Source: a virus
IMG/VR virus record: IMGVR_UViG_3300045988_140747
Length of the DNA: 64,000 nt
Strand: one strand, 5' to 3'
The position numbers and the translations under genes are program-made. Below, piece by piece: positions 32,493-64,000 of this stretch; positions within the stretch are counted from its first letter, which is position 1, and every line of letters begins with the position of its first letter. A model generated the notes under the pieces. It was not told where the DNA came from. It searched no databases and worked only from the letters and a program-made list of their open reading frames with translations.

Positions 32493-32512
32493 ATTTAAAG
32501 GAGGTTATTGTT

Positions 32513-33424
32513 ATGGCAAACAATGCACTGAGCAAGGCCGAAAGCAACGCTCTGAGCGTCAGTTATGACGTTATGGGCACGAGAGTTGATCTGGATCTGA
32601 ACTTCGTTAAGCGCTACCTTGTCAGAGGACAGGCCGATCGAGTGACTGATCAGGAGCTGGTGTTCTTTATGAATACCTGCAAGATGCAGAAGCTGAACCC
32701 GTTGGCCTCCGGCGAAGTGTACTGCATCAAGTTTGGCAGTGATCCTGCGCAGATGGTTATCGGTAAGGATGCTTATCTGCGCCGGGCATTCAGCAATCCC
32801 GACTACCTTTATAAGGAAGACGGCATCACCGTTCTGCGCGGAGAGCAGATCGTGCAGAAAGAAGGCTGCTGCCTTTACCCGGGAGAGAAGCTTATCGGCG
32901 GATGGTGTAAGGTCTATTTCATGCGGAACGGCAAGGAACGTACCGCATACAAGGAGGTTTCCCTTGAGGAGTACAACAAGGGCCAGGCGAACTGGAAGAC
33001 AAAGCCGGCGACCATGATCGACAAGGTAGCCGTCTCTCAGTGCGTCCGCGATGCGTTCCCGAAAGACTACGAGGGCCTGTACAGCGAGGATGAAATGGTC
33101 GCTTCTGGAGCGATTCCCGTAAATTTCCGCGAGGTGAAGAACACGGAAAGCTCAAATGCACCGGCGACCGAGGTTGTCGATGCTGATCCCGTCATCTCTC
33201 AGGAACAGCGACAGGCTCTTTTCAAAGCCGCCCAAAAACAGTTCGGCAAGGAAGAAGGCAATGCGGTTGTCAAGAAAATCATCGAGAGTATGGGACTTGA
33301 ATCGACAACGGGAATGACTGAAAGCCAGTATGTCGAAGCTACCGAAAGGCTCATGAAGATGGTTGATGACAGAAAAGCTGCTGTCGCCAGTGAGGAGACT
33401 GCCGCCGATGAAGCCAGCGAATGA
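32513..33424 (+). CDS. recT: RecT-family single-strand annealing protein (303 aa)
   Basis: ATG 32513 follows AAAGGAGG. Overall RecT-like pattern (FMNTCKMQKLNPL..GEVYCIKFG...NWKTKPATMIDKVAVSQCVRDAFP). Confidence 0.8.
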   Translation: MANNALSKAESNALSVSYDVMGTRVDLDLNFVKRYLVRGQADRVTDQELVFFMNTCKMQKLNPLASGEVYCIKFGSDPAQMVIGKDAYLRRAFSNPDYLYKEDGITVLRGEQIVQKEGCCLYPGEKLIGGWCKVYFMRNGKERTAYKEVSLEEYNKGQANWKTKPATMIDKVAVSQCVRDAFPKDYEGLYSEDEMVASGAIPVNFREVKNTESSNAPATEVVDADPVISQEQRQALFKAAQKQFGKEEGNAVVKKIIESMGLESTTGMTESQYVEATERLMKMVDDRKAAVASEETAADEASE

Positions 33425-33459: not shown

Positions 33460-34257
33460 ATGGCATGGGTCAGTGTGCATGATACGGTTGACGGGAGGAA
33501 GCTGCGAGAGCTTGCTAAGTCAATCGGATGCACCAAGGAAGAGGCCCTTGGAACATTGGTGTCCCTCTGGATGTGGGGACTCAAGAACGCCGACAAGTTT
33601 GGCAGAATCATAAGCGCGGACAAAACGGATATCCTTGACGCGTTCAGCATGAAGTTGGTTGCAAAAATCCCGAATGTCGTTGATTTGCTCATAGAAAACG
33701 GGTGGATTGACGTTGAAAACGAGAAAGACCTCGTCATCCACGACTGGGATCAATGGCAGGCGTTGTGGTACAAGGCAAACGAGCGGAGAGAGAGCGATGC
33801 AAGGAGAAAGAAGAAGGAACGGCTTAAAAAGCGTGGAACCGCAGATGAACCGGAGCAAACACGCGAAACTGCCGATTATCAAACGACAGAAGCCACCGAA
33901 GAGGCCGAGAACATGAGTTTCCTTCCGAAGGATGAAAAGCCGGTATCCAAGTATTCTGAAGGCTTTGAATCTTTCTGGAAGGCGTACCCAAGAAAAATCG
34001 ACAAGGGGAATGCCTACAAAAAGTATTCCGCTCGAAGAAAAGATGGATTTTCGGACGAGGAACTTATCGAAGCCGCTACTGCTTATGCCGGGGAGTGCAA
34101 TAGGCTTCACACTGAGCAGAACTACATCAAACATCCGAAGACATTCCTGAGCGATAGCTTGCCGTTCACGGACTACATCAAGAAGAAACCCACTTCACCG
34201 GCAGAATGCCAAGAACCGAATACTGCAGATCCGTTTGCGGAATGGGGTGAGCCGTAA
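33460..34257 (+). CDS. replication initiation / replisome-organiser-like protein (265 aa)
   Basis: C-terminal FESFWKAYPRKIDKGNAYKKY motif is common in phage replication-module proteins. Directly precedes the DnaC-like loader. Start uncertain. Confidence 0.55.
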   Translation: MAWVSVHDTVDGRKLRELAKSIGCTKEEALGTLVSLWMWGLKNADKFGRIISADKTDILDAFSMKLVAKIPNVVDLLIENGWIDVENEKDLVIHDWDQWQALWYKANERRESDARRKKKERLKKRGTADEPEQTRETADYQTTEATEEAENMSFLPKDEKPVSKYSEGFESFWKAYPRKIDKGNAYKKYSARRKDGFSDEELIEAATAYAGECNRLHTEQNYIKHPKTFLSDSLPFTDYIKKKPTSPAECQEPNTADPFAEWGEP

Positions 34258-35135
34258 TGTACGAAACAAGCTATCAGATGATGAAAGCAGCGGCTGAAAG
34301 ATGCATGAAAATGCAGAAGGAGAGGCCGGGAGACTATAGGAATAGTCAGGGGCTTCTTGTATGTGGCCGCTGTAAGAGTCTACGACAGAAGATTATGATG
34401 ATTTCCAATCCGACTCCTGAAGACAAGGATCATAAAAGCCAGCTGATTGTTCCGATTCAGTGCAGATGCGATATCTCTGATCGCGAAAAAGGCTTGAAAG
34501 ATAGGGCCGATGCGCAAAATGCCGAAAGGCTTAAAAGGTTGAAAGCGGCCAGTCTGATGGATGAAAAGCTTGCAAATGCATCCTTTGACGGATTTCGGAG
34601 CAATCCATATAATGAGCGAAATCGAAAACTGTGCATCAGCTACGCCGATCGGTTTCAGAAAATGGTTGATAACAATCAAGGACTGCTTTTTTGGGGTGGA
34701 GTTGGAACAGGAAAGAGCTATGCTGCAGCCTGTATAGCCAACAGTCTTATGGGAAAAGGCGTTCCTGTTGTCATGACATCTTTTGTCAAGCTATTGGAGA
34801 TCATTCAATCCACCGGTCAGGAGTCCACAATATTATCAAACCTCAATTCTGCACAACTTGTTATTTTCGATGACCTTGGAGCTGAGCGTGGAACTGATTA
34901 CACGTTAGAAAAGGTTTACAACATTGTGGATAGCCGATATCGGAAAAGACTTCCGATGATTCTGACTACGAATCTTACTATCGAGCAGATGAAGGACGAG
35001 CAAGATATCCGCTACAGCCGAATTTATGATCGAATCTTCGAGTCCTGCTATCCGATGCAGTTCACAGGACCGAGCTGGAGAAAAAAAGAAGCATCCAGAC
35101 GTTTCAAGGAGATTGAAGATCTGCTTGGCAAGTAA
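34257..35135 (+). CDS. DnaC/IstB-like AAA+ helicase loader (292 aa)
   Basis: Walker A GGVGTGKSYAA, Walker B LVIFDDLGAE. TAATG overlap with the upstream gene. Confidence 0.85.
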   Translation: MYETSYQMMKAAAERCMKMQKERPGDYRNSQGLLVCGRCKSLRQKIMMISNPTPEDKDHKSQLIVPIQCRCDISDREKGLKDRADAQNAERLKRLKAASLMDEKLANASFDGFRSNPYNERNRKLCISYADRFQKMVDNNQGLLFWGGVGTGKSYAAACIANSLMGKGVPVVMTSFVKLLEIIQSTGQESTILSNLNSAQLVIFDDLGAERGTDYTLEKVYNIVDSRYRKRLPMILTTNLTIEQMKDEQDIRYSRIYDRIFESCYPMQFTGPSWRKKEASRRFKEIEDLLGK

Positions 35136-49014: not shown

Positions 49015-49150
49015 GACCGAAAGTATTGAAAGATCATGTGTGGTGCGCAACATACGCGGTCTGGAGACACATAGTAGGCAACAAGGCTCGTGTTAGGTAC
49101 AAGCACGGGTCAAATGCAAGAGAGCTGAAGACGTTCAGCTCTCTTTCTTT
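49015..49150 (+). ncRNA. structured spacer ending in a second terminator
   Basis: AGACCG 49012-17 pairs with CGGTCT 49056-61. Hairpin CTCGTG/CACGGG. Terminator AAGAGAGCTGAA-GACG-TTCAGCTCTCTT (49118-49145) followed by TCTTT, spanning 49118-49150. Confidence 0.4.
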
Positions 49151-49152
49151 AT

Positions 49153-49242
49153 GCAGTCGTACTCAAGTCTGGTTTAAGAGGGCTGTTTTGAAAACAGCTA
49201 GGTGGGTAACACGCGCGGGTTCGAATCCTGCCGGCTGCGCCA
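49153..49242 (+). tRNA. tRNA-Ser (anticodon TGA), class II, CCA encoded
   Basis: Acceptor GCAGTCG/CGGCTGC, 3-bp D stem, anticodon arm GCTGT-TTTGAAA-ACAGC, 16-nt variable arm, T arm GCGGG-TTCGAAT-CCTGC, G73. Confidence 0.85.
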
Positions 49243-49271
49243 TGAAAATAAAAATGAAGGAAGGCCATTTT

Positions 49272-49946
49272 ATGAAAGTTGAAAGACCCAGTTATCAAAT
49301 CCTTACTGAGATCTCAAAAGACGGCATCGAAGAGCTGCAGCGAATTGAACGCGTAGCACGAGTCTGCTATAAGAGCGAGGATAAGATCGTCCCGGATGGC
49401 TCATCGGCGAAGAAGCTGGTGAGCTTTCTTATTAAGCAGGAGCATGAGGCCATGCTGGAGCACTCCCAGCTGTCTGTGCTGTTCACCTGTGACAGGGCCA
49501 TTGCAAATGAACTGGTACGTCACCGCATTGCATCCTTCGCGCAGGAGAGCACCCGCTACTGCAACTATGCAGGGGAGAAATTCGGATGGGAGACTACGGT
49601 TATCAAACCGTACTACATTCCCGGCGATGGGTCTGACGCATATAAAGCTTGGTTCGATGCCTGCTGGGAAGCAGAGCAAAGCTATCTGAAGCTCATTCGG
49701 AGTGGTCTTCGTCCTGAACAAGCACGCTGCGTATTGCCGTTGTGCCTGAAGACAGAGATCGTGGTGACTGCCAACTACCGTGAGTGGCGTAACATTTTCA
49801 AATTGCGTACACATATCGCCGCTCACCCTCAGATGCGCCAGCTTATGTGCCCGCTTCTTCTCGAGCTGCAGAAGAAGATCCCGGTTGTGTTTGATGATAT
49901 CTACACCTACTGGCCGAATGATGACCAGACCGGTAAGAAAGCTTAA
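49272..49946 (+). CDS. thyX: flavin-dependent thymidylate synthase ThyX (224 aa)
   Basis: ThyX signature RHRIASFAQESTRY (RHRxxSxxxxSxR). ATG 49272 lies 8 nt after AGGAAGG. Earlier in-frame ATGs overlap the tRNA. Confidence 0.85.
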   Translation: MKVERPSYQILTEISKDGIEELQRIERVARVCYKSEDKIVPDGSSAKKLVSFLIKQEHEAMLEHSQLSVLFTCDRAIANELVRHRIASFAQESTRYCNYAGEKFGWETTVIKPYYIPGDGSDAYKAWFDACWEAEQSYLKLIRSGLRPEQARCVLPLCLKTEIVVTANYREWRNIFKLRTHIAAHPQMRQLMCPLLLELQKKIPVVFDDIYTYWPNDDQTGKKA

Positions 49947-49972
49947 CCCAAAGCCGTGGAAACACGGCACAT

Positions 49973-50062
49973 CGAGGATTCGCCAAGATGGTAATGCAGC
50001 GGAATTTGACTCCGCCAGTGCTGAATAAGCGATCGCAGGTTCGAGCCCTGCATCCTCGGCCA
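49973..50062 (+). tRNA. 90-nt class II tRNA with TTG (Gln) anticodon; isotype anomalous
   Basis: Acceptor CGAGGAT/ATCCTCG (7 Watson-Crick pairs). Anticodon arm GCGGA-ATTTGAC-TCCGC. A 19-nt variable arm with GCT-GAATA-AGC stem. T arm GCAGG-TTCGAGC-CCTGC. G73, CCA. Confidence 0.7.
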
Positions 50063-50085
50063 TAAAAGCAATCTGGAGGTCGTTC

Positions 50086-50715
50086 ATGGAAAGCAAAGAA
50101 CAGCTGGTGATTTTCGGTGCCGGCCAGCAGGGGCGCGTATGTAAGCGCCTTGCCATTGAAAACGGTTATGATGTGGCAGCATTCATTGATGACTTTGCCG
50201 CAGGATTAGTAGAGGATGTCCCCGTTTATCAAACCATCTATGATATCCCGGACTTCCGAAAATACAAATATTTCGTTGCCATTGGGGATGTCAAGGCAAG
50301 ACGGAAGTTCGTTGACCAGATCTACTCTCAGAAACTTGAATCTGTCAATTTGATCGACAAAGCCGCCTATATCGAAGATGGAGCGCAGCTCGGTACAGGA
50401 AACTACATCTGCAAGCTTGCGATCATCTACGCATCTGCAAAGATCGGAAGCCACAACATTATCAACTGTAAGGCAGTTCTCGCCACGGATACGGTGGTAG
50501 GCACCAACAATAACATCTCAATGGGATGCAACCTATGCGGAAGCGTCCGTGTCGGGAACAACTGCTACATAGGATGTCAGGCGTCCATTGTGAGCGAACG
50601 AACTATTGGAAACGGCTCTACTGTCGCAGCTGGCGCTGTTGTCCTGAAGAATGTCCCTGAGAATTCTTTCGTTGCTGGTGTACCTGCCATTCCGAAGGAG
50701 AGGAAAAGACGATGA
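50086..50715 (+). CDS. NeuD/PglD-family sugar N-/O-acyltransferase (hexapeptide repeat), 209 aa
   Basis: N-terminal LVIFGAGQQGRVCKRLAIENGYDVAAFIDD Rossmann-like opening, plus a left-handed beta-helix repeat region (IGSHNIINCKAVLATDTVVGTNNNISMGCNLCGSVRVGNNCYIG). Confidence 0.75.
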   Translation: MESKEQLVIFGAGQQGRVCKRLAIENGYDVAAFIDDFAAGLVEDVPVYQTIYDIPDFRKYKYFVAIGDVKARRKFVDQIYSQKLESVNLIDKAAYIEDGAQLGTGNYICKLAIIYASAKIGSHNIINCKAVLATDTVVGTNNNISMGCNLCGSVRVGNNCYIGCQASIVSERTIGNGSTVAAGAVVLKNVPENSFVAGVPAIPKERKRR

Positions 50716-51374
50716 AAGTTCTTGTTATCGCACCTCACCCTGATGACGAGATTCTCGGTGTTGGCGGAACGATAGCAAAAAGGGCTGCTGTCGGCGATGA
50801 AGTTACCGTGTGCATCTGTACAAAGGGCGTACACCCTATGTTCGATCAAAAGATTATTAAAGCTGGACGTGATGAAGCCAGAAAGGCTCACACATACCTT
50901 GGTGTCTCAGAAACCATATTTCTGGATCTTCCTGCTGCAGAGCTTGATAGTCTGCCTATGACTGATATCGTGGGAAGGCTCGAGAATGTGGTTTGCGAAA
51001 CACGTCCAGATGAGATTTTCATTCCTCATCATGGTGACATCCACAATGACCATAAGGCTATCTCTGCTGCCGCGATGGTTGCTTTGAGGCCGAAACGGTT
51101 CAAGAAGCCTGTTCGCATTCTCAGCTATGAGGTTCCGTCTGAGACAGGATGGGATACTCCTACTCCAGAAAATGCATTTAGCCCGAATGTATATGAGGAT
51201 ATCACCGACACAATCGGAAAGAAGCTCGACGCTGTTCTTATATACAGATCGCAAGCTGAACAGTGGCCGGGCGCTCGTTCCGCGGGCGCTGTTGAAGCTC
51301 TTGCAAAATATCGGGGATCTACCGTCTGCATCCCTTACGCCGAGGCATTTCAGCTTGTAAGGCAGACACTGTGA
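50712..51374 (+). CDS. PIG-L/LmbE-family N-acetyl-sugar deacetylase (220 aa)
   Basis: VLVIAPHPDDEILGVGGTIAK and HGDIHNDHKAIS are the family zinc-site motifs. ATGA overlap with the upstream gene. Confidence 0.8.
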   Translation: MKVLVIAPHPDDEILGVGGTIAKRAAVGDEVTVCICTKGVHPMFDQKIIKAGRDEARKAHTYLGVSETIFLDLPAAELDSLPMTDIVGRLENVVCETRPDEIFIPHHGDIHNDHKAISAAAMVALRPKRFKKPVRILSYEVPSETGWDTPTPENAFSPNVYEDITDTIGKKLDAVLIYRSQAEQWPGARSAGAVEALAKYRGSTVCIPYAEAFQLVRQTL

Positions 51375-51401
51375 CCAACATCTAAAGAAGAGGGTTCGTC
51401 A

Positions 51402-52055
51402 ATGGAAAAACGAATTGAAGTTTGCAAGATGAGAGCTGGAGATATCAAAACCGGCTTCGGGAATCCCAGAAAGATCAGCAACAAAAAAATGGATGAGCTC
51501 GAGCAGAGCATGAGCACCTTCGGAGATTTCGGGATTTTCCTCATCGACGAAAAGAACAACGTCATCGGCGGAAACCAGCGGTTGAAAGTTGTCAAGAAGC
51601 TTTATGGCGAAGATGCCATGATTGATTGCAAACGGCTCATCGGATATTCTCAATCCGAGCTCAAGGCGATCAACATCAAGGACAACACACACTCTGGTGA
51701 ATGGGACCTTGACTTGTTGGCTGACTGGACTTCTGAACTCGTCATGGACTTCAGCGTTGAGGCCGAGGAGAAGAAGCAGATCGAAGAGCGCGAGATCCCG
51801 GAGATGGAGCTTATCCACTACGAAAAGTACGATTATGTCATGATCGTATGCAACAACGAGCTGGATTACAACAATCTGGTGAGAGCACTTGGCATCGAAG
51901 GCAAGAAAGTTCGGATTTCCAAACGCAAGATCAACGCGCGTGCGGTCTGGTATCACAAGATGAAGGCGAAGGTCATTCCTTACGATGAACTTCCTGAAGA
52001 ACTTCTTGATGATTCTGACATCAAGGCAAGGGATGGCGGTGGCGAAGATGAGTAA
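51402..52055 (+). CDS. ParB/Srx-fold N-terminal-domain protein (217 aa)
   Basis: GFGNPRKISNKKMDELEQSMSTFGDFGIFLIDEKNNVIGGNQRLKVVKKLYG parallels the ParB N-domain (NPR....l..L..si...G...pi.v.....viDGhhRl.a...lg), with GGNQR in place of DGHHR. Confidence 0.55.
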   Translation: MEKRIEVCKMRAGDIKTGFGNPRKISNKKMDELEQSMSTFGDFGIFLIDEKNNVIGGNQRLKVVKKLYGEDAMIDCKRLIGYSQSELKAINIKDNTHSGEWDLDLLADWTSELVMDFSVEAEEKKQIEEREIPEMELIHYEKYDYVMIVCNNELDYNNLVRALGIEGKKVRISKRKINARAVWYHKMKAKVIPYDELPEELLDDSDIKARDGGGEDE

Positions 52056-52671
52056 CAATACTCTCGTTATCCTTGGTGCCGGCCAGCAGGGAAGAAACTG
52101 CCATAGACTGGCTCCCATCAACGGTTATCAAACGGTTGCCTTCGTCGATGATTTCATCACTGACCCAGTGGAAGACATCCGGGTGTATAGCAAGATCGAA
52201 GATATTCCGGATTTCATGGATCATAAGTACATCGTTGCTGTTGGGGATCTTGCGGTCAGAAAAAAGTTCATTGAGCAGATCAATCTGCTTGGCCTTGAGT
52301 GCGCAAACCTGATTGATCCCACCGCTGATATCGAACCCGGAGCCAAGATTGGAACTGGCAACTACATCTACAAGTTCGCCAGCGTGTATGCTTCGGCCAC
52401 AATCGGAGACCACAACATTATCAATTGCAAAGCTGTACTTGCTACCGACAGCGTTATTGGCAACAACTGCAATATCTGCATGGGAAGCAACATCTGTGGC
52501 GCGGTTCATGTAGGAGACAATAGCTATATTGGGTACAACGCAACGGTCGTCAGCGGGAACAACGTGGGGGCGAACGCCACAGTGGAGGCTGGATCTGTGG
52601 TTATGGAGGATGTGCCGGACTGGCTCCGCGTTTCTGGTATTCCGGCTCGAGACGCCGAAGAACTGTGGTAA
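52048..52671 (+). CDS. second NeuD/PglD-family acyltransferase (207 aa)
   Basis: ATG 52048 inside ORF 51985..52671. LVILGAGQQGRNCHRLAPINGYQTVAFVDD. Roughly half the residues are identical to 50086..50715 by eye. Confidence 0.75.
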   Translation: MSNNTLVILGAGQQGRNCHRLAPINGYQTVAFVDDFITDPVEDIRVYSKIEDIPDFMDHKYIVAVGDLAVRKKFIEQINLLGLECANLIDPTADIEPGAKIGTGNYIYKFASVYASATIGDHNIINCKAVLATDSVIGNNCNICMGSNICGAVHVGDNSYIGYNATVVSGNNVGANATVEAGSVVMEDVPDWLRVSGIPARDAEELW

Positions 52672-52686
52672 ACGTAGAGGTGTAAT

Positions 52687-53403
52687 ATGGAAAAGCCAGA
52701 TATTTTCGGAATCTACATTCCGAGCTATAAGAGATCTGATACGATTACCACTCATAAGCTTCTCGAATACTACAAGGTTGTTATTCGCCAGAGCGAATAT
52801 GAAGACTACCTCAAGACCATCCCTGCAGAAAACATCATTGCCGTTCAGGACGATCTTATCGATAGCGTTCCGAAGGTGTGGAACTGGATCATCGACAATG
52901 CAGAGGAGGACTACTTCTGCATTATCGGTGATGATGTTCCAAGGTTCTACTACCGGCTTGAGAAGAGCGAGGCCATCACAGATCCTGAGATTATCACTTC
53001 TGAGATAGAGCGAATCGGCCAGCTTATGATCGATCTCAATATCGGATGGGGATGTGATGATGCCACCAACGTGCCTTGGGGATACGATGCTGAGTTCACG
53101 TTCAAGGGGACTACCGGCGGAATCAACTGGATTAACAGGAAGAAGCTCAAGGGAAGGTTCAATGCGGAAATCGGATACTGCTGCGATACCGATGTCGTTA
53201 TGCAGGAACTTCTGGTAAACCGGATTATTCTCAAACCCAAGTATTTGTGTCCCGGCGGTGGAGCTGACAAAAACAAAGGCGGCAACTCAAAGAAGAGCCG
53301 AGAGAGTATGATTGCCAGCTTCGAACTTATGAAAACGAAGTGGGGCAAGTATTTCGACTACGACCTGAAGACCAACAAGATCTATGTGAGGGTTCCGCGA
53401 TGA
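52687..53403 (+). CDS. unknown protein, possible GT-A-like glycosyltransferase (238 aa)
   Basis: GAGGTG RBS. N-terminal strand IYIPSYKRSD and a DxD-like IIGDDV. Assignment is weak and motif-based only. Confidence 0.3.
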   Translation: MEKPDIFGIYIPSYKRSDTITTHKLLEYYKVVIRQSEYEDYLKTIPAENIIAVQDDLIDSVPKVWNWIIDNAEEDYFCIIGDDVPRFYYRLEKSEAITDPEIITSEIERIGQLMIDLNIGWGCDDATNVPWGYDAEFTFKGTTGGINWINRKKLKGRFNAEIGYCCDTDVVMQELLVNRIILKPKYLCPGGGADKNKGGNSKKSRESMIASFELMKTKWGKYFDYDLKTNKIYVRVPR

Positions 53404-54083
53404 CCGATGTAAGAGTGTTCTCAGGCCATCAGCCAAACTTCCTTCCATACATGGGCGTGTTCTACAAGATGTACCGTTCCAACGTGTTTGTCTTGGATGA
53501 CGATGTGCAGTATTCTAGGGATGGACTTCACAACGCCAACTTTATCAAAGTGAATGGGTCTAAGCACAGGATTACCGTGCCGGTCAAATACAACTTTGGA
53601 GATCCGATCAACAAGGTTGAGATATGCAACGACATGGATTGGGCTGGCAAGATGCTCAAGACTATGAAGTGCGCTTATGCAAAGGCTCCGCATTTTGAAG
53701 AAGGATATGGGCTCTTGGAAAGGCATTTTCAAAACATGCCAACCCGCTTGTCGGACTTGAACATTGGCCTCATCCGCGAAATCGCAGATAGATTCGGGAT
53801 GACGTGCAAAATTGTCGTTGCCAGCGAATCTGTTCCTACGGATCTCAAGAAGAACGAAAGAAACCTCTACCAATGCATCACCCTCGGGGGAAGTGAGTAC
53901 CTGTCAGGAGAGGGAGGAAGGGTATACAACGACGAAGAGCTGTTTGCTGGGCACGGGATCGACGTGAAGTACTCCGATTATCATCCACTCCATTACAGGC
54001 AAGTCGGTAGGGAGTTCATCGAGAACTTATCCGTTATTGACTACATTTTTAATGTTGGATTTGCGATTCCTGAAGAATGGTGA
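53400..54083 (+). CDS. WbqC-like family protein (227 aa)
   Basis: FSGHQPNFLPYMGVFYKMYRSNVFVLDDDVQYSRDGLHNANFIKVNGSKHRITVPV follows the WbqC-like opening (QPnYlPwlGYF.....sDvFV.lDdvqf.....~nRN.Ik..~G..~ltvPv). ATGA overlap. Confidence 0.7.
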   Translation: MTDVRVFSGHQPNFLPYMGVFYKMYRSNVFVLDDDVQYSRDGLHNANFIKVNGSKHRITVPVKYNFGDPINKVEICNDMDWAGKMLKTMKCAYAKAPHFEEGYGLLERHFQNMPTRLSDLNIGLIREIADRFGMTCKIVVASESVPTDLKKNERNLYQCITLGGSEYLSGEGGRVYNDEELFAGHGIDVKYSDYHPLHYRQVGREFIENLSVIDYIFNVGFAIPEEW

Positions 54084-56282: not shown

Positions 56283-57691
56283 ATGAGTATGCCACAGATC
56301 CTGAAGCCGCAGGAAGGACCTCAGACACGGTTCATGTCTACCCCCGCGAGCATTTGTATCTATGGCGGCTAGGAGCAGCCGGCGGAGGGAAAAGCTTTGG
56401 ATTGCTCATGTCTGCCCTTCGGTACAAGAACGTGCCCGGGTTTGGCTGCACCATATTCCGAAAGAACTTCAACCAGATATTTGCACAGGGCGGTCTGTGG
56501 GATGAATCCATGCAGATCTACCAAGACGTCAAGGGAGCTTGTCCCAAGTTCGCTCGAGGGCAATGGTTGTTCTGCAATGACAAAGGTGAGGTTTTATCAA
56601 AGGTCACGTTTGCTCATATTGAGAAGGATGAGGACGTCCATAAATGGCAAGGCTCTCAGATCTGCGAATTGGGATTTGACGAGCTAACTCATTTTACCGA
56701 GAAAACGTTCTTCTATATGCTATCCCGTAACCGATCTGCCTGTGGTGTTGAGCCATTTGTCAGGGCTACATGCAACCCTGATGCGAATTCATGGGTGGCA
56801 AAGTTCATTGAGTGGTGGATCGATCAGGATACTGGATACCCAATCCCTGAACGGAGTGGGAAGATTCGATGGTTTATCCGCCGGGATGAAGTGCTCTACT
56901 GGGCTAATACCCGGCAAGAGCTCTGGAAAAGATTCAATCTCACTACAGAAGAGGAGAAAAGTGAGCCAAGGTCTGTCACGTTCATAATGTCTAAGTTGAG
57001 CGACAACAAGGAACTTATGAAGGTGAACCCGGGCTACCTTGCAAACCTAAAGGCGCTGTCTCAGATCGAGAGAGAGCGCCTTCTTTATGGAAACTGGAAG
57101 ATCAAGGCCGCTGCTGGTCTCTACTTCAAGAGATCACAGCTTGGAGAGATTCTCAATAGTGTCCCTGCGGATGTCATCCAGTGGGTAAGATGCTGGGACT
57201 TGGCTGCTACGGAAAAGGACGACAAGGGAGACCCGGCATATACTGCTGGCGTCCTTATGGGAAAGCGGAAGAATGGACGATATGTCATTGCCAACGTTGT
57301 CAACAAGCAGATGTCCGCATCTGATGTCCGAAAGACCATCAAGCTCACGGCACAGTCTGATAGAGCTGCCTATAAGCGAGTCCGAGTTCGATTGCCACAG
57401 GATCCCGGACAGGCCGGTAAGGAACAGGCGGAGTCCTACATAAAGTTCTTGGCCGGCTTTGATGTTACGACTGTGGCAGAAAGCGGAACCAAAGAGGCAA
57501 GAGCGGAGCCAATGGCTGCACAATGGCAGGCTGGAAACTTCGACATTGTATACGGCGAGTGGAATGAAGAGTACCTGCTTCAGCTTGAAAACTTCCCAGA
57601 TGGAAAGTTCAAGGATATGGTCGATGCTTCCGCAAATGCTTTTGCAGAGATCGAATCCAGATGCGCATTCAACCTCAGCAACCTGATTTGA
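56283..57691 (+). CDS. terL: terminase large subunit, reading frame broken 5' of the Walker A motif
   Basis: Frame A (56283-56372) reads MSMPQILKPQEGPQTRFMSTPASICIYGG then TAG. The frame of ORF 56354..57691 continues (L)GAAGGGKSFGLL... plus the full ATPase and nuclease domains. Removing 5 nt (TAGGA, 56370-56374) restores ...IYGGAAGGGKS. Confidence 0.8.
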
Positions 57692-57717
57692 TTACCATAC
57701 CGGAAGGAGATATAAGC

Positions 57718-60700
57718 GTGGATAAGATGACACAAGAGGATCGCATCAAGCACTATGCGCATCTGATTCAGCGTCAGACTGGCAAGGCTGTGCGACCGTA
57801 CCGTGCTGACGGATACGTCAACATGGTTAACCGGTATGGCACATCGAAAGATTCGTCCGAGCAGTACAACTTCGTACCGGATGCGCCGGTTGCTGACGAT
57901 GTGCTTGAAATGCACTATGAAAACAACGGCCTGTTTTCCAAAATCATCGATATGCCGGCAGAGGAAGCCATCAAGCACGGCTTTACCATCGAAGACGTAG
58001 AGGACGGAAAGCTGGCTGACTTCTACAGCGAAGCTCTCGACGAACTCAACTGGGAAGAGAACGCCATGACCGCCGTTAAGTGGGCAAGACTGTTCGGCGG
58101 CTCCATTGCCATTATGCTTGTGAACGATGGTCGTGGGCTCGAGGAACCTCTCGATTGGAAGAACATTCAATCCATTGACGATATCCGAGTGTACGACAGA
58201 TCGCTCATTAGCCCTGACTACAGTAGCGTGTTCAACTACGATCCGCAGGATCCATTCCGAGTTCGCGGCAGTCGGCTTGGTATGCCCGAATACTATGATG
58301 TCTATAGCAAGTATGGATCATTCCGAGTACACGACAGCAGATGCCTTGTTTTCCAAAACGGCGTCCTGCCTGAAAATGCAACTAACTCCATCTACCAGTT
58401 TTGGGGAATCCCGGAGTACATCAGGCTGAACAAGGCCATCCGGGATGCGGACATTGCACACCGCAGCGCACCCAAGTTGCTGGAACGGTCTGTGCAGCCC
58501 ATCTATAAGATGAAGGATCTCGCGGCTGAGTTGGCTACAGAACAGGGCGAAGACCGCATTCTCAAACGTCTGCAGGTTATCGACACTGCACGAGGAATCC
58601 TCAACAGCCTTGTCATCGATGCCGATGGCGAAGACTATGACTTCAAGACGTTCCAGTACAACGGTATCACTGACGTTATCAGTGCATCCTGCAATATGCT
58701 CGCTGCCCTGTCCAATATTCCACAGATCATTCTGTTTGGGCAGACCATCAGCGGAATGAGCAGCACTGATGACACCAGCATGGAGAACTACTACAACTAC
58801 GTTGAGCGCATTCAGAAAAGGATGCTGCGGAGTAATCTCCGATATCTACTGTCTGTTGTTTTTCAAGCCGGCCTTGCAACCGGAGAGGTTGATGAAGTCC
58901 CAAAGCTGAAGGTTCAGTTCAATCCTCTGTGGTCTGTCAGCGATTCCGACCAAGCAACTCTGGATCAGCAGAAGGCCCAGACCGAGCAGATCAAGGCGCA
59001 GACTGCCCAGATCTATGTCGGTATGGAAGCCATTGATCCCAGCGAGGTTCGTTCCAAGCTTGCAGATAGCGATGACTTTGATGTCGAGAATATGCTTGAT
59101 GAGTATACTGAAGAGGAACTCGAAGCTGGAATGCCAAGCAATGATGAGAGCCAAGAGCAAACGCCTGATGATGGACAGCCTGCTACTCCTGATTCTCAAC
59201 CTACTGGAAATGATGAAAAAGCCGGACCTGGTCAGCTCCTGAACGAAAAGACTCTCTCTGCTGTTGGAAACAATGCAAAAGATCCTGCCACCATGGAGAC
59301 TAAGGTTAGCTCCGATCCTCATGAAAACAAGGAAGGCACTGAAGGTGATGCCCCTGCATCCGCCCCTGCTGCGACGAAAAAGCCTTCCGACATGGACCCT
59401 GAAGAAAAGGCCAAAGCTGCACAATCGCGCCAAAACAAGGCAAAAGACCGGGAGGACTCACTTCGTACCGATGACAACAATTCTCACTCCGAAGATCAAA
59501 AAGGCTCGGTGGGCGTTATTGTGGTCAATGGGGGCAGAGTCCTGAATGGTACTCGGCACAACGATTTTGGCTACGGCCTTGTCTGTGGCCCCGGCGGTCA
59601 CATTGAAGAAGGTGAAACTCCGGAACAGGCTGCATTCCGAGAGACCAAAGAAGAATTCGGTATTACGCCCAAAAGCCTTATGTGCCTTGGACAAGGGCCT
59701 AAAGAAAAAGATACCGGCCTGAAGCCGTACCTGTTCCTGTGCACCGAATACTACGGCACTCCGAACTGCGAAGATCTCGAGATGACCGGCGCCAAGTTCA
59801 GTACCATTGAGGAATTGAACGAAAAGGCCGAATCCTTGTTCGGCCCGTTCGCAGACGGCCTGAACATCCTGATGGACTGCCTTGAAACCGGCATCTTCTA
59901 TACAGACCCAGCGGAAGGCGTAACTGGCGAGAAACTGAATTCTCATCTGGAAAAGGCTATGAATGCCGATGGAGGTCAAGGATCTGGCAATTTTGGACAC
60001 GAAGGAAGGCCAGGAAAAGTAGGAGGAAGCGCCGAGTCGCACAACTTTGGAGGGCTCAAAAACAGCGAGCTTTCATCTAAGATGAATGGCGTGTTCGATG
60101 ATGCAAAGATAGGAACTCGCTTTTCCGTAAAGATGAACGGCGTTGCCGGAAAAGATGATTATGAAATCTATAAAGTTTCAGATGGATTCTACGTTCGGAG
60201 CAAAAAAGGCGGAAACGATATTGTCAAATCAGTTGACAAGCTCGTCGAGAATTGCGGTGTATACGTCACAAATCTGACCTCTGACAAGGTCATGTATAAG
60301 GAAGCCAACATTGAAGTTGGTGAACCCGAAACAGAAGAAGCACAAAGTTTTACTAGAGCATACGAATCTTGCAGAAAGGAAAGAGAGCGACTTGCATCTG
60401 GGAATTATAAAATCACTGAAGTTGATGATGCTACCGCAAAAAAGTATGCTGACACTTTGAACAAAGCAAGCAAGGCAAAAATCGCAAAACTTGCTATTGA
60501 TGACCCACAGTTCAAGGCTGTTGTTGATAACATTTCTGCGTATACACAGGGAGAATATGTATATCAGCGAAAAGCGACTGAAAAATTCATCAGCAACGGA
60601 TATGACCCATCTAACGATGCAATCCTCGGAGATCGACTTACCGATTCTTTGTATTTATGCAAAGACATGTACAAGGGACAAAATCTTTCCGTTTCCAGTG

Positions 60701-63700
60701 CAAGTGTAACGGAAGGCATGGCGAACTTGACAAAGGCTGTGAATTGCTCCGATCCGTTTGACGGAGAGCTGTACCGAGTTGCTCAGGACAGAAGCCTGAT
60801 GAAAACTGCAGACTCTGGAAACCAGGGAGTATACACTCCGCCAAAACCCGGAGAAACAATATCCATAGTTGCTCCTACTTCGTTCTCAAAGGACAAAGCG
60901 GCTATTGATAAGATTGCCAAAGATAAGTCCGGTGATATCATCTATTACACTGTTCAACCGGGTGCTCATGCCGTAGATGTATCAAAGCTGTCACCGTATA
61001 AGCAAGCTGAACTCCTTACCTGCGGAGAATATGAGGTTGTCAGTGTTGATTCCAAGCCTCAGAGAGTTGTTATGACTCAGATCGATCGTTTCACAAGTGA
61101 AACAATCGATTCGCTGAAGGCCAACAGAGGGGCAACAGTTGACGACGGTTTTGTTAAATTTCCAATCCTTGAAACTCATGTGACTCTTCGCCAGAAAGAA
61201 CCTATTCACATGGATTCTTGCGATGATAGCATCCACAGATACAGACCCGACGATTTTTCCGAACGGATGGTCTATGATGACGAGATTGATCTCGATGGTG
61301 GCCCAGGGTCTGGGAACTATGGGCACGAGGGCGTTCCGGGGCAAGTGGGCGGAAGCGCCCCTAGCACAAGCGGTCCGATTTCCAAAAGTAGCTTTCAGAA
61401 GGGCTCTGGTCACTTTGAAGTAACTGGTGACGTGAAAGATATGTATCTCACAAAGCCGGCAAGAACCAGAATTGAAGGGGCTATTAAAACGGTGAAAACC
61501 GCTAATGACCTCAAGAAATATCTTGAAAATCAAGGAATCAAGCTTGAAACGTCTTATGAACCACTCAAGAAAGCGATGGATAGAGAGATCCCGTCCATCA
61601 AGGAGCAGGCTGATTATGTGATTGCCGCTATTGAGCAGTACAAGGATCTCGGTGGGCTTAAAGCGCTTAAAGCGGTTCACATCTATGACCATGATATTGA
61701 TGCACAGGCGCAGTACAGCTATCGCGCAAAAGGGGAAGGTGATGTTCCAGACGAGGGACATTTGTATATCAGCTACATGGCTAATGGAGAGCAAATTATG
61801 CATGAGTTTGCTCACGCCTATGCTGACTCCACAAAGCCTGATGGAATGGATGTTGTCGAATGGTCAGCGAAGCTCAACCAAGAAGCAGGCCTTTCGAAAA
61901 ACGTAAAATCATACTTCGGCGCGGACAGCGATGCTAAAGAAGCTGAGCGTTTTGCCAATGCGATTGGGTACGCAATTGCGGATGGAGATGGACCGGATGG
62001 CCGACTTGCATTTGCTGCAAATGTTGCGAATATCGTAAGAAATTCCAATGGATCGTCCGCAGGAATGTCCGGCGGAAACCTTGCATTTAGAAGCATGATT
62101 CCGAAAGACAGCTACTTCAACTCTCCATCCTACAAGAAGGCTGTTGAAGCCTACCGCGGAGCCATCAGAAAGCATGACGATGCATGGAAGAAATATAGCG
62201 ACCTCAAGGAAGATCTCAAAGCAGAGTCCGCTCCGAAGCCTGAATCTGAATGGGATGATAACGACATCTTCGAAGATCTCATTGGCCATCGTCCCATGAC
62301 CTACACAGAAAAAGGCAAGAAGATCAAGTCTGAGATGGACAAAGCCTTCAAGGATTCACAGGAATATGACCATGAGCAGACCGAGACTGGCGACAAGCTT
62401 CGCGAGATCAAGAAAAAAGAGCATGACAAGCAGGTGAAGGGCATCCATTTCCAACCGCCTGCTGATGCCTCCTCCGATGATTATGAGGGCTTTACCACTA
62501 AGACCACCGGAACGTCCGCCTATGATGACTACATCAACGGAGAAAGGAACGGAGGCCGAATTGCAGAGATGTCCCCGGCGGAATATCTTCAAAGATGCGC
62601 CTATCAGGTCTTTGAAGATGCTACCATTGAGTCCACTCTGGCTGCTATCGATGAGTCCAACGTTAAGAAGTATGCCGATATGATGAAGAATGGCACAAAG
62701 TTTGACATGCCGTATCTCAATTTCATGTCTGGTCAGCAGGAAGGACGGCATCGAGCCGCTGCTGCCATGCAAGCTGGTATCGATAAGATCCCTGTGCTTG
62801 TGGTCGGAGAAAGGTTTGCCAAGTATGACGGAGGAAAAGGCTCTGGCAACTGGGGCCATGAAGGCCGAAAAGGGAAGCTCGGTGGATCGGCCCCCGGCGG
62901 AGGCGTGCACAACCGGATTTCCGAAGAGGGCGGATCCTACACCTCATTCTCAAAGAAGCAGAAGAAACTTGCCACAACGCACTTTGCCGGCAAGGGGGAA
63001 TTTCACAATCTCCCGGACAAGACTAAGATTGTTGCCGATCTTGTGTTTGGACCGTACTCTATGGTCTATAACGCCAAGCATGGCATGTTCATCGGCGAAG
63101 ACGGTGCCGAAATGAACCCGGATGATGTGACAGACGCTTGCGACAAAGACACTCCTGTTCGAGTGTTCATTCCGAATGAGGCGAGCACGAACTACAACAA
63201 GCTCAAGCAGTCCTTTGATGTTTCCCCGTCCAGAATGGCTGAAGCAAAAGCCTATTCACAGCCAAAGCAAGCCGACAAAGACCTCCGAAAGAAAACCGGA
63301 GAGGTGTGGAAAACGCTTACTGATGGTCAGAAAAAGTCACTTTATGATTATACCGGCGGCTTTTTTATGGACATCAACCACTCCCTGAGAAGTGGTCATG
63401 GAACTGTGCAGAACCAGTCCAAGGCCTCTGACATCACGACCGCCATAGCTAAGAGCAAAACTCAAGAGGATATGTGGCTGTATCGAGGAGTTGGCTTGGA
63501 GGCTGTTCCTAAGATGTTTGGTATTGACTGGGGAAAAATACAGAAGAATGACATTGGTTCTATTGTTGGAATGTCCGGCTCTGACGACGGCTTTATGTCG
63601 TGCGGTACAACTGCTGGCACTGGATATGGAGACGTAACCGATGTCAACATGAAGATTTTCGTTCCGAAGGGGTCTGAGGCTCTATACGCAGAGCCGTTCT

Positions 63701-63897
63701 CAAAGTATGGAAGCAACCCGGATGCCAAGAACTGGAACGGCGAAAGCGATCAGACCTATTTTTCCTCCGAAATGGAGACTATCTTGCAAAGAGGGTCTCA
63801 TTTCCAATGCACAAAAGCCTACTACGATGAGGACAAAAAGAAATACAGTATCGAAGTGGCTGTCACCGGACAAGAATACAAGGAGCTCAATTGGTGA
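57718..63897 (+). CDS. portal protein fused to a polyvalent cargo: Nudix, MuF-like/ART-fold, zincin metallopeptidase, ParB/Srx-like and C-terminal ADP-ribosyltransferase domains (2,059 aa)
   Basis: GTG 57718 lies 8 nt after AAGGAG (ATG 57727 is an alternative start). DUF1073-type portal region at about 57.7-59.1 kb. Nudix box GPGGHIEEGETPEQAAFRETKEEFGI (59587-59664). R / TSFS / QxE triad at 60775, 60877 and 61003. HEFAH at 61801-61815. EGRHRAAAA at 62740-62766. Terminal ART domain with YTGGFFMDINHSLR, LYRG (63484), FMSCGT (63598) and ExE (63769-63777). Confidence 0.8.
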   Translation: MDKMTQEDRIKHYAHLIQRQTGKAVRPYRADGYVNMVNRYGTSKDSSEQYNFVPDAPVADDVLEMHYENNGLFSKIIDMPAEEAIKHGFTIEDVEDGKLADFYSEALDELNWEENAMTAVKWARLFGGSIAIMLVNDGRGLEEPLDWKNIQSIDDIRVYDRSLISPDYSSVFNYDPQDPFRVRGSRLGMPEYYDVYSKYGSFRVHDSRCLVFQNGVLPENATNSIYQFWGIPEYIRLNKAIRDADIAHRSAPKLLERSVQPIYKMKDLAAELATEQGEDRILKRLQVIDTARGILNSLVIDADGEDYDFKTFQYNGITDVISASCNMLAALSNIPQIILFGQTISGMSSTDDTSMENYYNYVERIQKRMLRSNLRYLLSVVFQAGLATGEVDEVPKLKVQFNPLWSVSDSDQATLDQQKAQTEQIKAQTAQIYVGMEAIDPSEVRSKLADSDDFDVENMLDEYTEEELEAGMPSNDESQEQTPDDGQPATPDSQPTGNDEKAGPGQLLNEKTLSAVGNNAKDPATMETKVSSDPHENKEGTEGDAPASAPAATKKPSDMDPEEKAKAAQSRQNKAKDREDSLRTDDNNSHSEDQKGSVGVIVVNGGRVLNGTRHNDFGYGLVCGPGGHIEEGETPEQAAFRETKEEFGITPKSLMCLGQGPKEKDTGLKPYLFLCTEYYGTPNCEDLEMTGAKFSTIEELNEKAESLFGPFADGLNILMDCLETGIFYTDPAEGVTGEKLNSHLEKAMNADGGQGSGNFGHEGRPGKVGGSAESHNFGGLKNSELSSKMNGVFDDAKIGTRFSVKMNGVAGKDDYEIYKVSDGFYVRSKKGGNDIVKSVDKLVENCGVYVTNLTSDKVMYKEANIEVGEPETEEAQSFTRAYESCRKERERLASGNYKITEVDDATAKKYADTLNKASKAKIAKLAIDDPQFKAVVDNISAYTQGEYVYQRKATEKFISNGYDPSNDAILGDRLTDSLYLCKDMYKGQNLSVSSASVTEGMANLTKAVNCSDPFDGELYRVAQDRSLMKTADSGNQGVYTPPKPGETISIVAPTSFSKDKAAIDKIAKDKSGDIIYYTVQPGAHAVDVSKLSPYKQAELLTCGEYEVVSVDSKPQRVVMTQIDRFTSETIDSLKANRGATVDDGFVKFPILETHVTLRQKEPIHMDSCDDSIHRYRPDDFSERMVYDDEIDLDGGPGSGNYGHEGVPGQVGGSAPSTSGPISKSSFQKGSGHFEVTGDVKDMYLTKPARTRIEGAIKTVKTANDLKKYLENQGIKLETSYEPLKKAMDREIPSIKEQADYVIAAIEQYKDLGGLKALKAVHIYDHDIDAQAQYSYRAKGEGDVPDEGHLYISYMANGEQIMHEFAHAYADSTKPDGMDVVEWSAKLNQEAGLSKNVKSYFGADSDAKEAERFANAIGYAIADGDGPDGRLAFAANVANIVRNSNGSSAGMSGGNLAFRSMIPKDSYFNSPSYKKAVEAYRGAIRKHDDAWKKYSDLKEDLKAESAPKPESEWDDNDIFEDLIGHRPMTYTEKGKKIKSEMDKAFKDSQEYDHEQTETGDKLREIKKKEHDKQVKGIHFQPPADASSDDYEGFTTKTTGTSAYDDYINGERNGGRIAEMSPAEYLQRCAYQVFEDATIESTLAAIDESNVKKYADMMKNGTKFDMPYLNFMSGQQEGRHRAAAAMQAGIDKIPVLVVGERFAKYDGGKGSGNWGHEGRKGKLGGSAPGGGVHNRISEEGGSYTSFSKKQKKLATTHFAGKGEFHNLPDKTKIVADLVFGPYSMVYNAKHGMFIGEDGAEMNPDDVTDACDKDTPVRVFIPNEASTNYNKLKQSFDVSPSRMAEAKAYSQPKQADKDLRKKTGEVWKTLTDGQKKSLYDYTGGFFMDINHSLRSGHGTVQNQSKASDITTAIAKSKTQEDMWLYRGVGLEAVPKMFGIDWGKIQKNDIGSIVGMSGSDDGFMSCGTTAGTGYGDVTDVNMKIFVPKGSEALYAEPFSKYGSNPDAKNWNGESDQTYFSSEMETILQRGSHFQCTKAYYDEDKKKYSIEVAVTGQEYKELNW

Positions 63898-63928
63898 TTC
63901 TTGCAATATTCTGAAATGTTTGTTGTTA

Positions 63929-63958
63929 TTTGACAAAACAGAATGTATCTGTTACGAT
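63929..63958 (+). promoter_or_regulatory. conserved phage promoter cassette, copy 11
   Basis: TTGACA 63929-63934, 18-nt spacer, TGt + TACGAT 63953-63958. It is followed by TAGGAGGG and an ATG at 63996 that opens a gene running off the window. Confidence 0.55.
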
Positions 63959-64000
63959 ACGTTTGTAAAAAACATCATGTTCTAGGAGGGATAAAATGGC

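Follow-up and report, generated by a model that had tools for sequence, protein, structure and literature searches.

A phage portal gene extended into a multi-effector polyprotein with an invariant peptide at its cassette junctions

The DNA analysed here is a stretch of 64,000 nucleotides (nt) from the virus record IMGVR_UViG_3300045988_140747, hereafter called the window. Close to its end one open reading frame (ORF), 57718-63897 on the plus strand, runs according to the ORF listing through 2,059 codons plus the stop without any internal stop. Six recognisable domains follow one another in the single chain: a portal, a Nudix hydrolase, an internal ADP-ribosyltransferase (ART), a zincin-like domain, a domain of ParB/sulfiredoxin (ParB/Srx) fold and a terminal ART of family PF03496 (Table 1). 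The gene is a phage portal gene which is extended at its C-terminus into an effector polyprotein with both polyvalent and polymorphic features. An earlier note on this DNA had read it as a portal fused in one frame to five enzymatic or toxin-like domains. The fusion stands, being free of stops and recurring across independent assemblies, and so do all five cargo domain calls, the Nudix domain and the terminal ART with support from profiles and the others with support from fold or motif; the motifs were found again at the positions given for them. Absent from the earlier description were three invariant junction peptides.

Two start codons have to be considered for this gene. An ATG at 57661 would give 57661..63897 on the plus strand, a product of 2078 amino acids (aa) which is likewise stop-free. 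The GTG at 57718 is the likelier start, because the Shine-Dalgarno sequence GGAAGGAG is found 8 nt 5' of it and because the preceding gene ends at 57691; gene callers place the start of close homologues at the equivalent codon (P0001, 2,060 aa). The preceding gene codes for the terminase large subunit (TerL), and 27 nt separate its end from the start of the fusion gene. The corresponding gene is the sole PF06381 (portal) gene between TerL and the capsid genes in the related loci L002, L005, L003, L128 and L129; this observation covers the head module, the rest of the genome not having been searched exhaustively.

Table 1. Features of the fusion gene and its immediate surroundings (positions in the window).
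Feature	Position	Strand	Basis or remark
TerL gene, directly upstream	56354..57691	+	phrog_979, E 3e-146
Shine-Dalgarno sequence GGAAGGAG	57702..57709	+	8 nt before the GTG start; read from sequence
ORF of the portal-anchored polyvalent effector polyprotein	57718..63897	+	Stop-free; homologue P0001 92% identical from end to end
Portal domain, Phage_portal_3 / DUF1073 type	57910..58986	+	PF06381, E 3.6e-72, profile positions 5-355 of 357
Acidic Pro/Ser/Thr/Gln-rich low-complexity tether, portal to Nudix	59110..59487	+	Read from translation
Nudix hydrolase domain	59503..59820	+	PF00293, E 5.9e-14; Nudix box from 59593
Junction 1, DGGQGSGNFGHEGRPGKVGGSA	59968..60033	+	Motif reading
Module B: small beta-rich N-terminal subdomain, helical region, predicted R-S-E ART	60043..61287	+	AlphaFold2 and Foldseek
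Module B motifs	ELYR 60766; PTSFS (TSFS 60877); KQAE 61000	+	Motif reading
Junction 2, DGGPGSGNYGHEGVPGQVGGSA	61294..61359	+	Breakpoint of module-B presence/absence versus L005
Module C-a, zincin-like metallopeptidase	61372..62073	+	HEFAH 61801-61815; EAERF 61939-61953
Module C-b, long helical hairpin and ParB/Srx-fold domain	62074..62826	+	Core about 62491-62808; QEGRHRAAAA at 62737
Junction 3, DGGKGSGNWGHEGRKGKLGGSA	62827..62892	+	Peptide identical in the separate ART gene of L127
Module D: N-terminal region and terminal ART	62893..63894	+	Pfam PF03496 match 63292-63861
Module D motifs	YTGGFFMDINHSLR 63349; LYRG 63478; FMSCGT 63592; EME 63769-63777	+	Motif reading
Promoter-like site, TTGACA-17-TACGAT with TG-extended -10	63930..63958	+	Consensus match only
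Start of next gene, ATG preceded by AGGAGG	63996..64000	+	Truncated at window end

A search of 5.8 billion proteins gave 268 homologues, mostly metagenomic, which possess the portal-Nudix core with further cargo attached behind, and the domain counts given here rest on the 120 of them that were listed. All 120 contain the portal; they are 1,130-2,090 aa long and come from ENA, JGI, Logan, NCBI and MGnify. One of them, P0001, has 2,060 aa, shows 92% identity along the entire chain and represents 67 member sequences. Because the fusion recurs in hundreds of independent assemblies it is not the product of a missed stop. Among cultured phages Faecalibacterium phage FP_Brigit comes nearest; its 828-aa "portal protein" consists of portal, Nudix domain and a short tail. 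Genome matches were obtained with metagenome-assembled genomes of Lachnospiraceae and Clostridia, and with the isolate Parablautia intestinalis D8-82.

The N-terminal part of the chain is the constant one. The portal domain is matched nearly in full length (243.5 bits with PF06381, against a cut-off of 33.8), and the PHROG portal match, phrog_15528, spans about 57742-59160 with an E-value of 7e-182. The tether, which is without a junction motif, is kept in 102 of the 120 homologues, and the Nudix domain is found in 119 of them. This domain scores 52.7 bits with PF00293 (cut-off 21.1), and its box, GGHIEEGE...RETKEE, fits the consensus GX5EX7REUXEEXGU but has a Thr at the first U position. The solved structures closest to it by sequence are MTH1/NUDT1, MutT and RppH; the proposal that it hydrolyses NAD or a derivative found no backing, since the comparison with solved structures gave no specific support for either NAD or ADP-ribose as substrate. 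No junction peptide is located ahead of the Nudix domain, and for this reason it probably remains tethered to the portal.

The middle 920 residues were split at natural boundaries into three modules, none of which was matched by a Pfam, PHROGs or PDB sequence search, and homologue alignments were then made, together with structure predictions for modules B and C-b. A homologue search with module B alone gave only 4 proteins, and its homologues were taken from the whole-protein search. The AlphaFold2 model of module B has a pLDDT of 83.7, and the top 50 Foldseek matches to it in the PDB are essentially all ARTs (Vis, C3, VIP2, CDTa, Certhrax, Plx2a; best E 5.9e-7), where the sequence itself had not a single match in Pfam, PHROG or PDB. 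Alignment A2, which contains homologues down to 41% identity, shows no variation at the Arg of ELYR, the Ser of PTSFS or the QxE of KQAE. Judged by its modelled fold, module B is a C3/VIP2-like ART with a predicted enzymatic role, so that the chain holds two ARTs. The earlier note had assigned this region to an ART or MuF fold. The ART half of the assignment agrees with the fold and with the R/S/QxE residues; a MuF domain is ruled out by the ART fold, by the lack of any Phage_Mu_F match in the ORF and by the presence of a separate 311-aa MuF gene in relatives.

Module C-a has the HExxH motif followed downstream by EAERFA, both of them invariant among its homologues (alignment A4), and it ends in a degenerate junction (ADGDGPDG). 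The C-a profile matched the catalytic region of anthrax lethal factor weakly (E 0.022-0.38); Iyer et al. (2017; PMC5512222) likewise name lethal factor as a distant relative of the metallopeptidase found in polyvalent proteins. A Pfam scan of C-a together with 14 diverse homologues gave no peptidase family, only coiled-coil noise. Among its homologues the module occurs alone or inside giant proteins, and it is present in only 12 of the 120 portal homologues.

For module C-b structure prediction was needed because the search of its A3 profile against the PDB was swamped by coiled-coil matches from the helical hairpin; the Pfam scan of C-b and 45 diverse homologues gave no ParB family and coiled-coil noise only. 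The AlphaFold2 model (pLDDT 93.9) shows a helical hairpin plus an alpha/beta domain. Structure matches of the latter in the PDB were sulfiredoxin (6ky4, probability 0.97), Osa, Noc, ParB and PadC, a consistent ranking with weak E-values (0.06 and weaker), and among the viral models of BFVD it matched ParB/Sulfiredoxin proteins with E-values to 2.4e-4. The motif QEGRHRAxAA (QEGRxRA) is invariant in A3, the arginines of GRHR included. A ParB/Srx fold for C-b is supported by the model.

The terminal ART in module D is matched by PF03496 (ADPrib_exo_Tox) with an E-value of 1.2e-20. Its best PHROG match is phrog_16625, the Bxa ADP-ribosyl transferase, and its best solved relative by sequence is Lmo0066, from a toxin-immunity pair of an ART and an ADP-ribosylglycohydrolase (ARH), followed by VIP2. 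Both ARTs of the chain possess the catalytic Arg, the Ser-x-Ser-type motif and the (Q/E)xE that define the R-S-E clade, and are predicted to be active.

The gene following the fusion gene is cut off by the end of the window after its first bases. Its counterpart in relatives is a 75-aa Cys-rich ORF, which is followed by a gene for an ADP-ribosylglycohydrolase (PF03747, E 4e-37). The bases 63850-64000 are identical to L005, including the last 103 bases, the ribosome-binding site (RBS) and the ATG of the 75-aa ORF; because of this identity the same downstream genes are expected in the window phage, where the 75-aa ORF and the glycohydrolase almost certainly come next as well. The order 3' of the fusion gene in L002 and L005 is: 75-aa ORF, glycohydrolase, MuF (PF04233, 311 aa), a 299-aa junction-tagged protein, a DUF2213 protein, and thereafter the cement protein, the major capsid protein and the tail genes. 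The DUF2213 protein is the head maturation protease according to PHROGs and has an acidic, scaffold-like tail.

The occurrence of the glycohydrolase gene goes with that of the ART cassette. It is present in all three loci with a PF03496 ART cassette (L002, L005, L127), where it comes after the ART together with the 75-aa ORF, and absent from the three loci without one (L003; L128, which has a zeta-toxin tip; and L129, which has module B only), and cassette and glycohydrolase are thus linked in 6/6 loci. In L128 (9598-10526) three small ORFs of 127, 62 and 66 aa take the place of the 75-aa ORF and the glycohydrolase and are candidate antidotes to the zeta toxin tip. The promoter-like site lies in the 98-nt gap between the fusion gene and the 75-aa ORF and glycohydrolase, and it is conserved in L002 and L005; the number of such sites in the region is not above that in shuffled controls. 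From this arrangement the antidote genes might be expressed independently of the late operon, for instance in a lysogen.

In P0001-P0006, P0012 and P0022 the portal-tether-Nudix part is 92-100% identical to that of the window, yet the cargo differs. P0001 has every module but its ART tip is only 65% identical; P0002 is without the zincin module C-a, P0003 and P0004 are without module B, and P0006 is without both B and C-a. P0005, P0012 and P0022 have other cargo on a near-identical portal-Nudix part, and the tips of more distant members are Ntox50, glutamine deamidase, zeta toxin and other ARTs. A conserved structural N-terminus with variable, predicted toxin tips is the signature of a polymorphic toxin system.

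The cassettes in the window gene are separated by three copies of a peptide, DGGxGSGN[FWY]GHEGxxGxxGGSA, whose general 21-residue form is D-G-G-x-G-S-G-N-[FHWY]-G-H-x-G-x-x-G-x-x-G-G-S. In 206 distinct instances taken from the collected proteins the residues D, G, G, G, S, G, N, G, H, G, G, G, G and S occur at or near 100% while the flanks are variable, and from the G preceding the junction Asn five consecutive G-X-Y triplets can be counted. The number of copies per portal homologue varies from 0 to 4, with at least one copy in 113 of the 120. The three DNA copies in the window gene are only 66-73% identical and have diverged at synonymous sites, yet the peptide is kept, so that it is the peptide which is under selection and not a stretch of DNA. 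The junction is also where the cassettes have been exchanged. L005, which encodes P0004, has the upstream flank of junction 1 of the window and continues from the first GATGG as exact junction 2, which places the breakpoint of the module-B indel inside the junction, and in P0003 the hybrid junction is a different one. The cargo consists of cassettes that can be exchanged for one another and are shuffled at the junctions.

A scan of IMG/VR contigs with a degenerate DNA pattern found the junction in at least 115 stretches, whereas a tblastn search of the GenBank phages with the peptide gave no match, probably owing to the low-complexity filter. Out of a sample of 150 junction-bearing IMG/VR ORFs 56 were portal-anchored, and none resembled the MuF protein of the window phage. 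Most of the non-portal ORFs have the junction 12-75 residues from the start and then the cargo, often as tandem genes, and the leaders of these stand-alone genes form a few families, for example MxxGKIxxGxxKFLGKDEAxRxxNRLLNL, MKFSRNPxSGxxExYTDEGVY and basic IRIRHxLRxRR types. Tandem arrays of 3-4 genes of the form leader-junction-cargo were seen in the IMG/VR loci L054, L085, L125 and L019; in L054 all four resemble the terminal ART. The 299-aa protein of the head module mentioned above (L002 18956-19855, L005 13624-14523) has the same form, with a 38-aa basic leader and a junction (DGGPGSGNFGHGGRPGKVGGS), and its gene is located between those for MuF and the maturation protease; it had no Pfam or PHROG match. 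Two further short peptides occur at positions equivalent to the junction, DW(D/N)ExxHPR(D/G)xxG(K/R)F and GVPGMKWGV (Pfam DUF7211, 25 residues); these alternatives were found among P0134, P0159, P0176, P0207, the FP_Brigit portal (L001 5968-8454) and P0105 (residues 1102-1115). Such sequences suggest that several interchangeable junction signals exist.

The same cassettes are found as separate genes. In L003, which has the same head module, an 850-aa gene for portal, Nudix domain, junction and a small tail is followed by an 89-aa ORF and then by module B as a gene of its own (P0123), composed of a 45-aa leader, a junction and the ART. In L127 the portal is 92% identical to that of the window, and a separate 422-aa gene consists of a 41-aa leader, a junction identical to junction 3 (DGGKGSGNWGHEGRKGKLGGSAPG) and a PF03496 ART. 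The earlier note had regarded a gene boundary after the portal in related genomes as speaking against the fusion. Such boundaries do exist in L003 and L127, but they are no sign of error: the cassettes interchange between fused and split forms, and the split genes show that a short leader can take the place of the portal polyprotein as upstream carrier. The small tail in L003 (7246-7602) is a C-terminal module of about 100 residues after the junction (…DPHMYVRAKERKVYPESIQNAL…), which may be akin to the small, portal-fused toxin domains of RNase type in Iyer et al.

Elsewhere the window encodes an RtcB-type RNA ligase (24230-25456), a large serine integrase (26662-28377, minus strand), a RecT-like annealing protein (32489-33424) and a DnaC-like helicase loader (34257-35135). 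Because an integrase is encoded the window phage is taken to be temperate or a prophage. The RtcB-type protein would provide a capacity for RNA repair and may be a counter to tRNA-cleaving defences. Just 5' of the packaging genes, at 49026-54083, there is a ThyX-type thymidylate synthase together with a glucosyltransferase-like gene (phrog_842), and by synteny with L002 (1536-6366) two PglD_N/hexapeptide acyltransferases, a PIG-L deacetylase, a TAGT-like gene and WbqC are expected nearby. From its gene content this region looks like a DNA base hypermodification cluster.

The reading which we favour, with somewhat more confidence than doubt, is that the portal carries the cargo into the head, that the junctions are processed at maturation, that the modules are ejected with the DNA and that the glycohydrolase protects the producer. 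Because the C-terminus of a portal protein points into the capsid interior, cargo fused to it would be located inside the head; the portal domain would join the portal ring of the procapsid and the fused cargo would ride along without a separate targeting signal. The cargo would be a string of cassettes, an ART, a zincin-like peptidase, an enzyme of ParB/Srx fold and a second ART, with a junction ahead of each. The junctions would most likely be processing sites cut at head maturation, by a protease of the DUF2213 type or possibly autocatalytically; the DUF2213 protease, encoded a few genes downstream in relatives, is the obvious candidate. The freed modules would exit with the DNA and act in the next host before phage genes are expressed, where they could ADP-ribosylate host proteins, carry out proteolysis and attack nucleic acids or nucleotides, while the Nudix domain would probably stay on the portal. 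In a producer or a lysogen the terminal ART, of the arginine type, would be restrained by the downstream glycohydrolase and perhaps also by the 75-aa protein. That the effectors are packaged in the capsid had been proposed in the earlier note, and the proposal fits the gene context, with TerL upstream and MuF, the maturation protease and the capsid gene downstream in relatives.

Several observations weigh against this reading. Packaging, cleavage of the junctions and ejection are steps we infer, in the case of packaging solely from the fusion to the portal and from the position in the head module. A cargo of about 170 kDa which is present twelvefold at a single vertex would be unprecedented and could hinder assembly as long as it is unprocessed, and the junction could be no more than a hinge or a place of recombination. 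No Pfam model matches the zincin module or the ParB module, the models for polyvalent-protein domains included. Regarding immunity, module B in L129 is without an adjacent immunity gene, and the 75-aa ORF retains 92% identity in a pair of phages with only 65% identity in the ART tips (and 100% in the MuF protein). The idea that the 75-aa ORF codes for a tip-specific inhibitor of the Bsi kind was dropped as unsupported, because the ORF does not co-vary with the ART tip.

The hinge argument can be extended into a model without any release, in which the cargo stays covalently on the portal or acts in the producer cell only, for example by modifying or protecting packaging components or by defeating defences which sense portal or terminase, and in which the junction is a hinge and a recombination joint. 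The constant Nudix domain, which has no junction before it and so is probably portal-bound, would be consistent with such a model, as would the indel breakpoints that map to the junction and the five G-X-Y triplets, which could be purely structural; furthermore, Iyer et al. (2022; PMC9503650) suggest that head-associated ARTs may counter immunity aimed at the packaging apparatus. A mere hinge between domains, however, leaves unexplained why stand-alone cargo genes retain a short N-terminal leader and a junction, and the invariance of the peptide, N and H included, in spite of the synonymous divergence points to a specific function of the peptide; effectors trapped in the capsid would also be of little use after assembly. 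We regard this model as unlikely, though with a chance large enough to be kept in mind. Rather improbable in our judgement is a model patterned on Bxa, in which the portal does no more than carry the toxins or provide for their expression, and these are freed at lysis to act outside the infection cycle on competitors or the animal host, helping the lysogens. It is based on Bxa being the best PHROG match of the terminal ART and itself an ART of a prophage head module, fused to a structural protein and accompanied by an ARH and a small immunity protein, which has been reported to affect both epithelial cells and bacteria; among the tips, Ntox50, glutamine deamidase and zeta toxin are classics of interbacterial toxins, and the integrase of the window points to a temperate phage. 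Against this, the chain contains no secretion or uptake domain, its zincin, ParB and Nudix domains are typical of injected polyvalent proteins and not of exotoxins, and the portal fusion physically puts the cargo in the capsid. It should be noted that toxin release and injection are not mutually exclusive.

As to how the cargo would be set free, the earlier note had named the embedded zincin as a candidate for the release protease, and self-processing of the polyprotein at the junctions by this HExxH peptidase would be in line with the autoprocessing which Iyer et al. (2017; PMC5512222) propose for the metallopeptidases of polyvalent proteins, citing the processed DdrB protein of P1. The HExxH and the third-ligand motif are indeed intact and conserved. 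The distribution of the module is at variance with such a role: 113 of the 120 portal homologues have a junction and only 12 have the zincin, many junction loci (L129 and L003, for example) have no zincin at all, and the zincin behaves as another exchangeable cargo cassette, with a DUF2213 protease encoded nearby in relatives. As a general release mechanism it is very improbable. Finally, a missed stop, a frameshift or a chimeric assembly might have joined a portal gene to the genes downstream of it, a suspicion which is nourished by the fact that the same cassettes are separate genes in some relatives. With the full-length 2,060-aa homologue standing for its 67 members, more than 100 other independently assembled fusions, a frame which is kept across three junctions and no RBS or start context at the module boundaries, the chance of such an artefact is close to negligible.

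Neither the junction motif nor the gene form of leader, junction and cargo was found described in the open-access literature, and the words linker and junction are absent from the papers of Jamet et al. (2017; PMC5576092) and Iyer et al. (2017; PMC5512222). This led us to formulate a more general hypothesis, which we put forward tentatively and would rather bet against: the junction peptide may be an undescribed universal signal for release or packaging of capsid-delivered effectors in phages of gut Clostridia. The hypothesis states that anything placed behind a junction may be loaded into the head and freed, whether the carrier is the portal polyprotein or a leader of 12-50 residues. Cutting could be done by the DUF2213 protease or, more speculatively, could be autocatalytic at the invariant Asn, since the N-x-G-H of the junction may bear a loose likeness to NPTH, the self-cleavage site of FlhB/EscU. 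The peptide may at the same time be the place where phages swap their cassettes.

Among these findings the junction peptide is the lead with the greatest novelty. It is a simple sequence tag by which putative capsid-delivered effectors can be recognised in gut viromes and a defined candidate processing site, and it might be used in designs that bring foreign proteins into phage heads. If the favoured reading is correct, a dozen copies of a customisable enzyme kit would be placed at the exit channel of the capsid and be delivered ahead of gene expression, which would be the highest-stoichiometry form of the strategy used by MuF toxins and polyvalent proteins; portal-anchored cargo has so far been noted in sequence surveys only. 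The terminal ART and the glycohydrolase constitute a candidate toxin-antidote pair in abundant Lachnospiraceae/Clostridia phages of the human gut.

The known system closest in composition is that of the polyvalent proteins (Iyer, Burroughs, Anand, de Souza and Aravind, 2017; PMC5512222), later extended to NAD/ADPr domains (PMC9503650). Their hallmarks are two to fifteen domains per polypeptide, among them ART, zincin metallopeptidase (related to lethal factor) and DdrB-like ParB/Srx domains with a conserved active-site arginine (PMC5512222). Like the window gene they combine many effector domains in one chain, ARTs among them, in the late or virion context of a terminase-portal phage, and for them too a passage through the head into the host is predicted; the zincin-like and ParB/Srx-fold modules of the window gene would complete the resemblance. 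Iyer et al. (2017; PMC5512222) noted portals fused to PBECR, 2H and InPase domains, and portal-Nudix fusions as well as fusions of ARTs to head-associated or portal proteins are also on record (PMC5512222, PMC9503650), so that the novelty which the earlier note had attached to fusing a portal to such enzymes was overstated. The described portal fusions have the simplest architectures, a portal and one effector, whereas the portal of the window carries five cargo domains, and the zincin, ParB and internal ART of the latter escape all Pfam models. In addition, the invariant junction and the leader-junction-cargo form were not found in those texts, and the immunity-like genes adjacent to loci of the window type are more typical of polymorphic toxins.

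The polymorphic side of the gene has its counterpart in the MuF toxins (Jamet et al., 2017; PMC5576092), which include Apk2 and Bxa (Alexei et al., 2024; PMC11699363). Bxa, a MuF-ART from a prophage, is counteracted by two immunity proteins, the small Bsi and the hydrolase BAH (PMC11699363), and the relatives of the window have a parallel succession of toxin, small ORF and putative enzymatic antidote, the latter being the ADP-ribosylglycohydrolase. MuF toxins share with the window family a head-structural N-terminus, variable C-terminal tips (ART, glutamine deamidase and others) and an occurrence in temperate phages of gut bacteria. They differ in the anchor, which here is the portal, with MuF in the relatives a separate, toxin-free gene, and in having one tip where the window gene has several effectors in series. 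No match to the MuF domain (PF04233 / PF06152-type) was found anywhere in the ORF, and because this defining domain is absent the window gene is not a MuF toxin.

Alt and the internal proteins of phage T4 are targeted to the capsid, cut by the prohead protease and injected with the DNA (cited in PMC5512222 and PMC9503650). Alt is thus a head-packaged, injected ART, and the removal of its N-terminal targeting part at a defined site matches the layout of leader, junction and cargo. The T4 signal and cleavage motif are unrelated in sequence to the junction, however, and the T4 cargo is not fused to the portal; moreover, in our system the cleavage is only deduced. The ART-ARH pair of Listeria (Lmo0066, PDB 8za7) has an ART together with an ADP-ribosylglycohydrolase gene, as in the relatives of the window; such pairs are secreted bacterial effectors, whereas the ART of the window forms the end of a portal polyprotein, with the ARH encoded behind a small intervening ORF. 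The window gene belongs, as a large new member, to a class already described, that of multi-effector phage proteins packaged in the capsid, and is not a new kind of system; it unites polyvalent and polymorphic features on a portal anchor.

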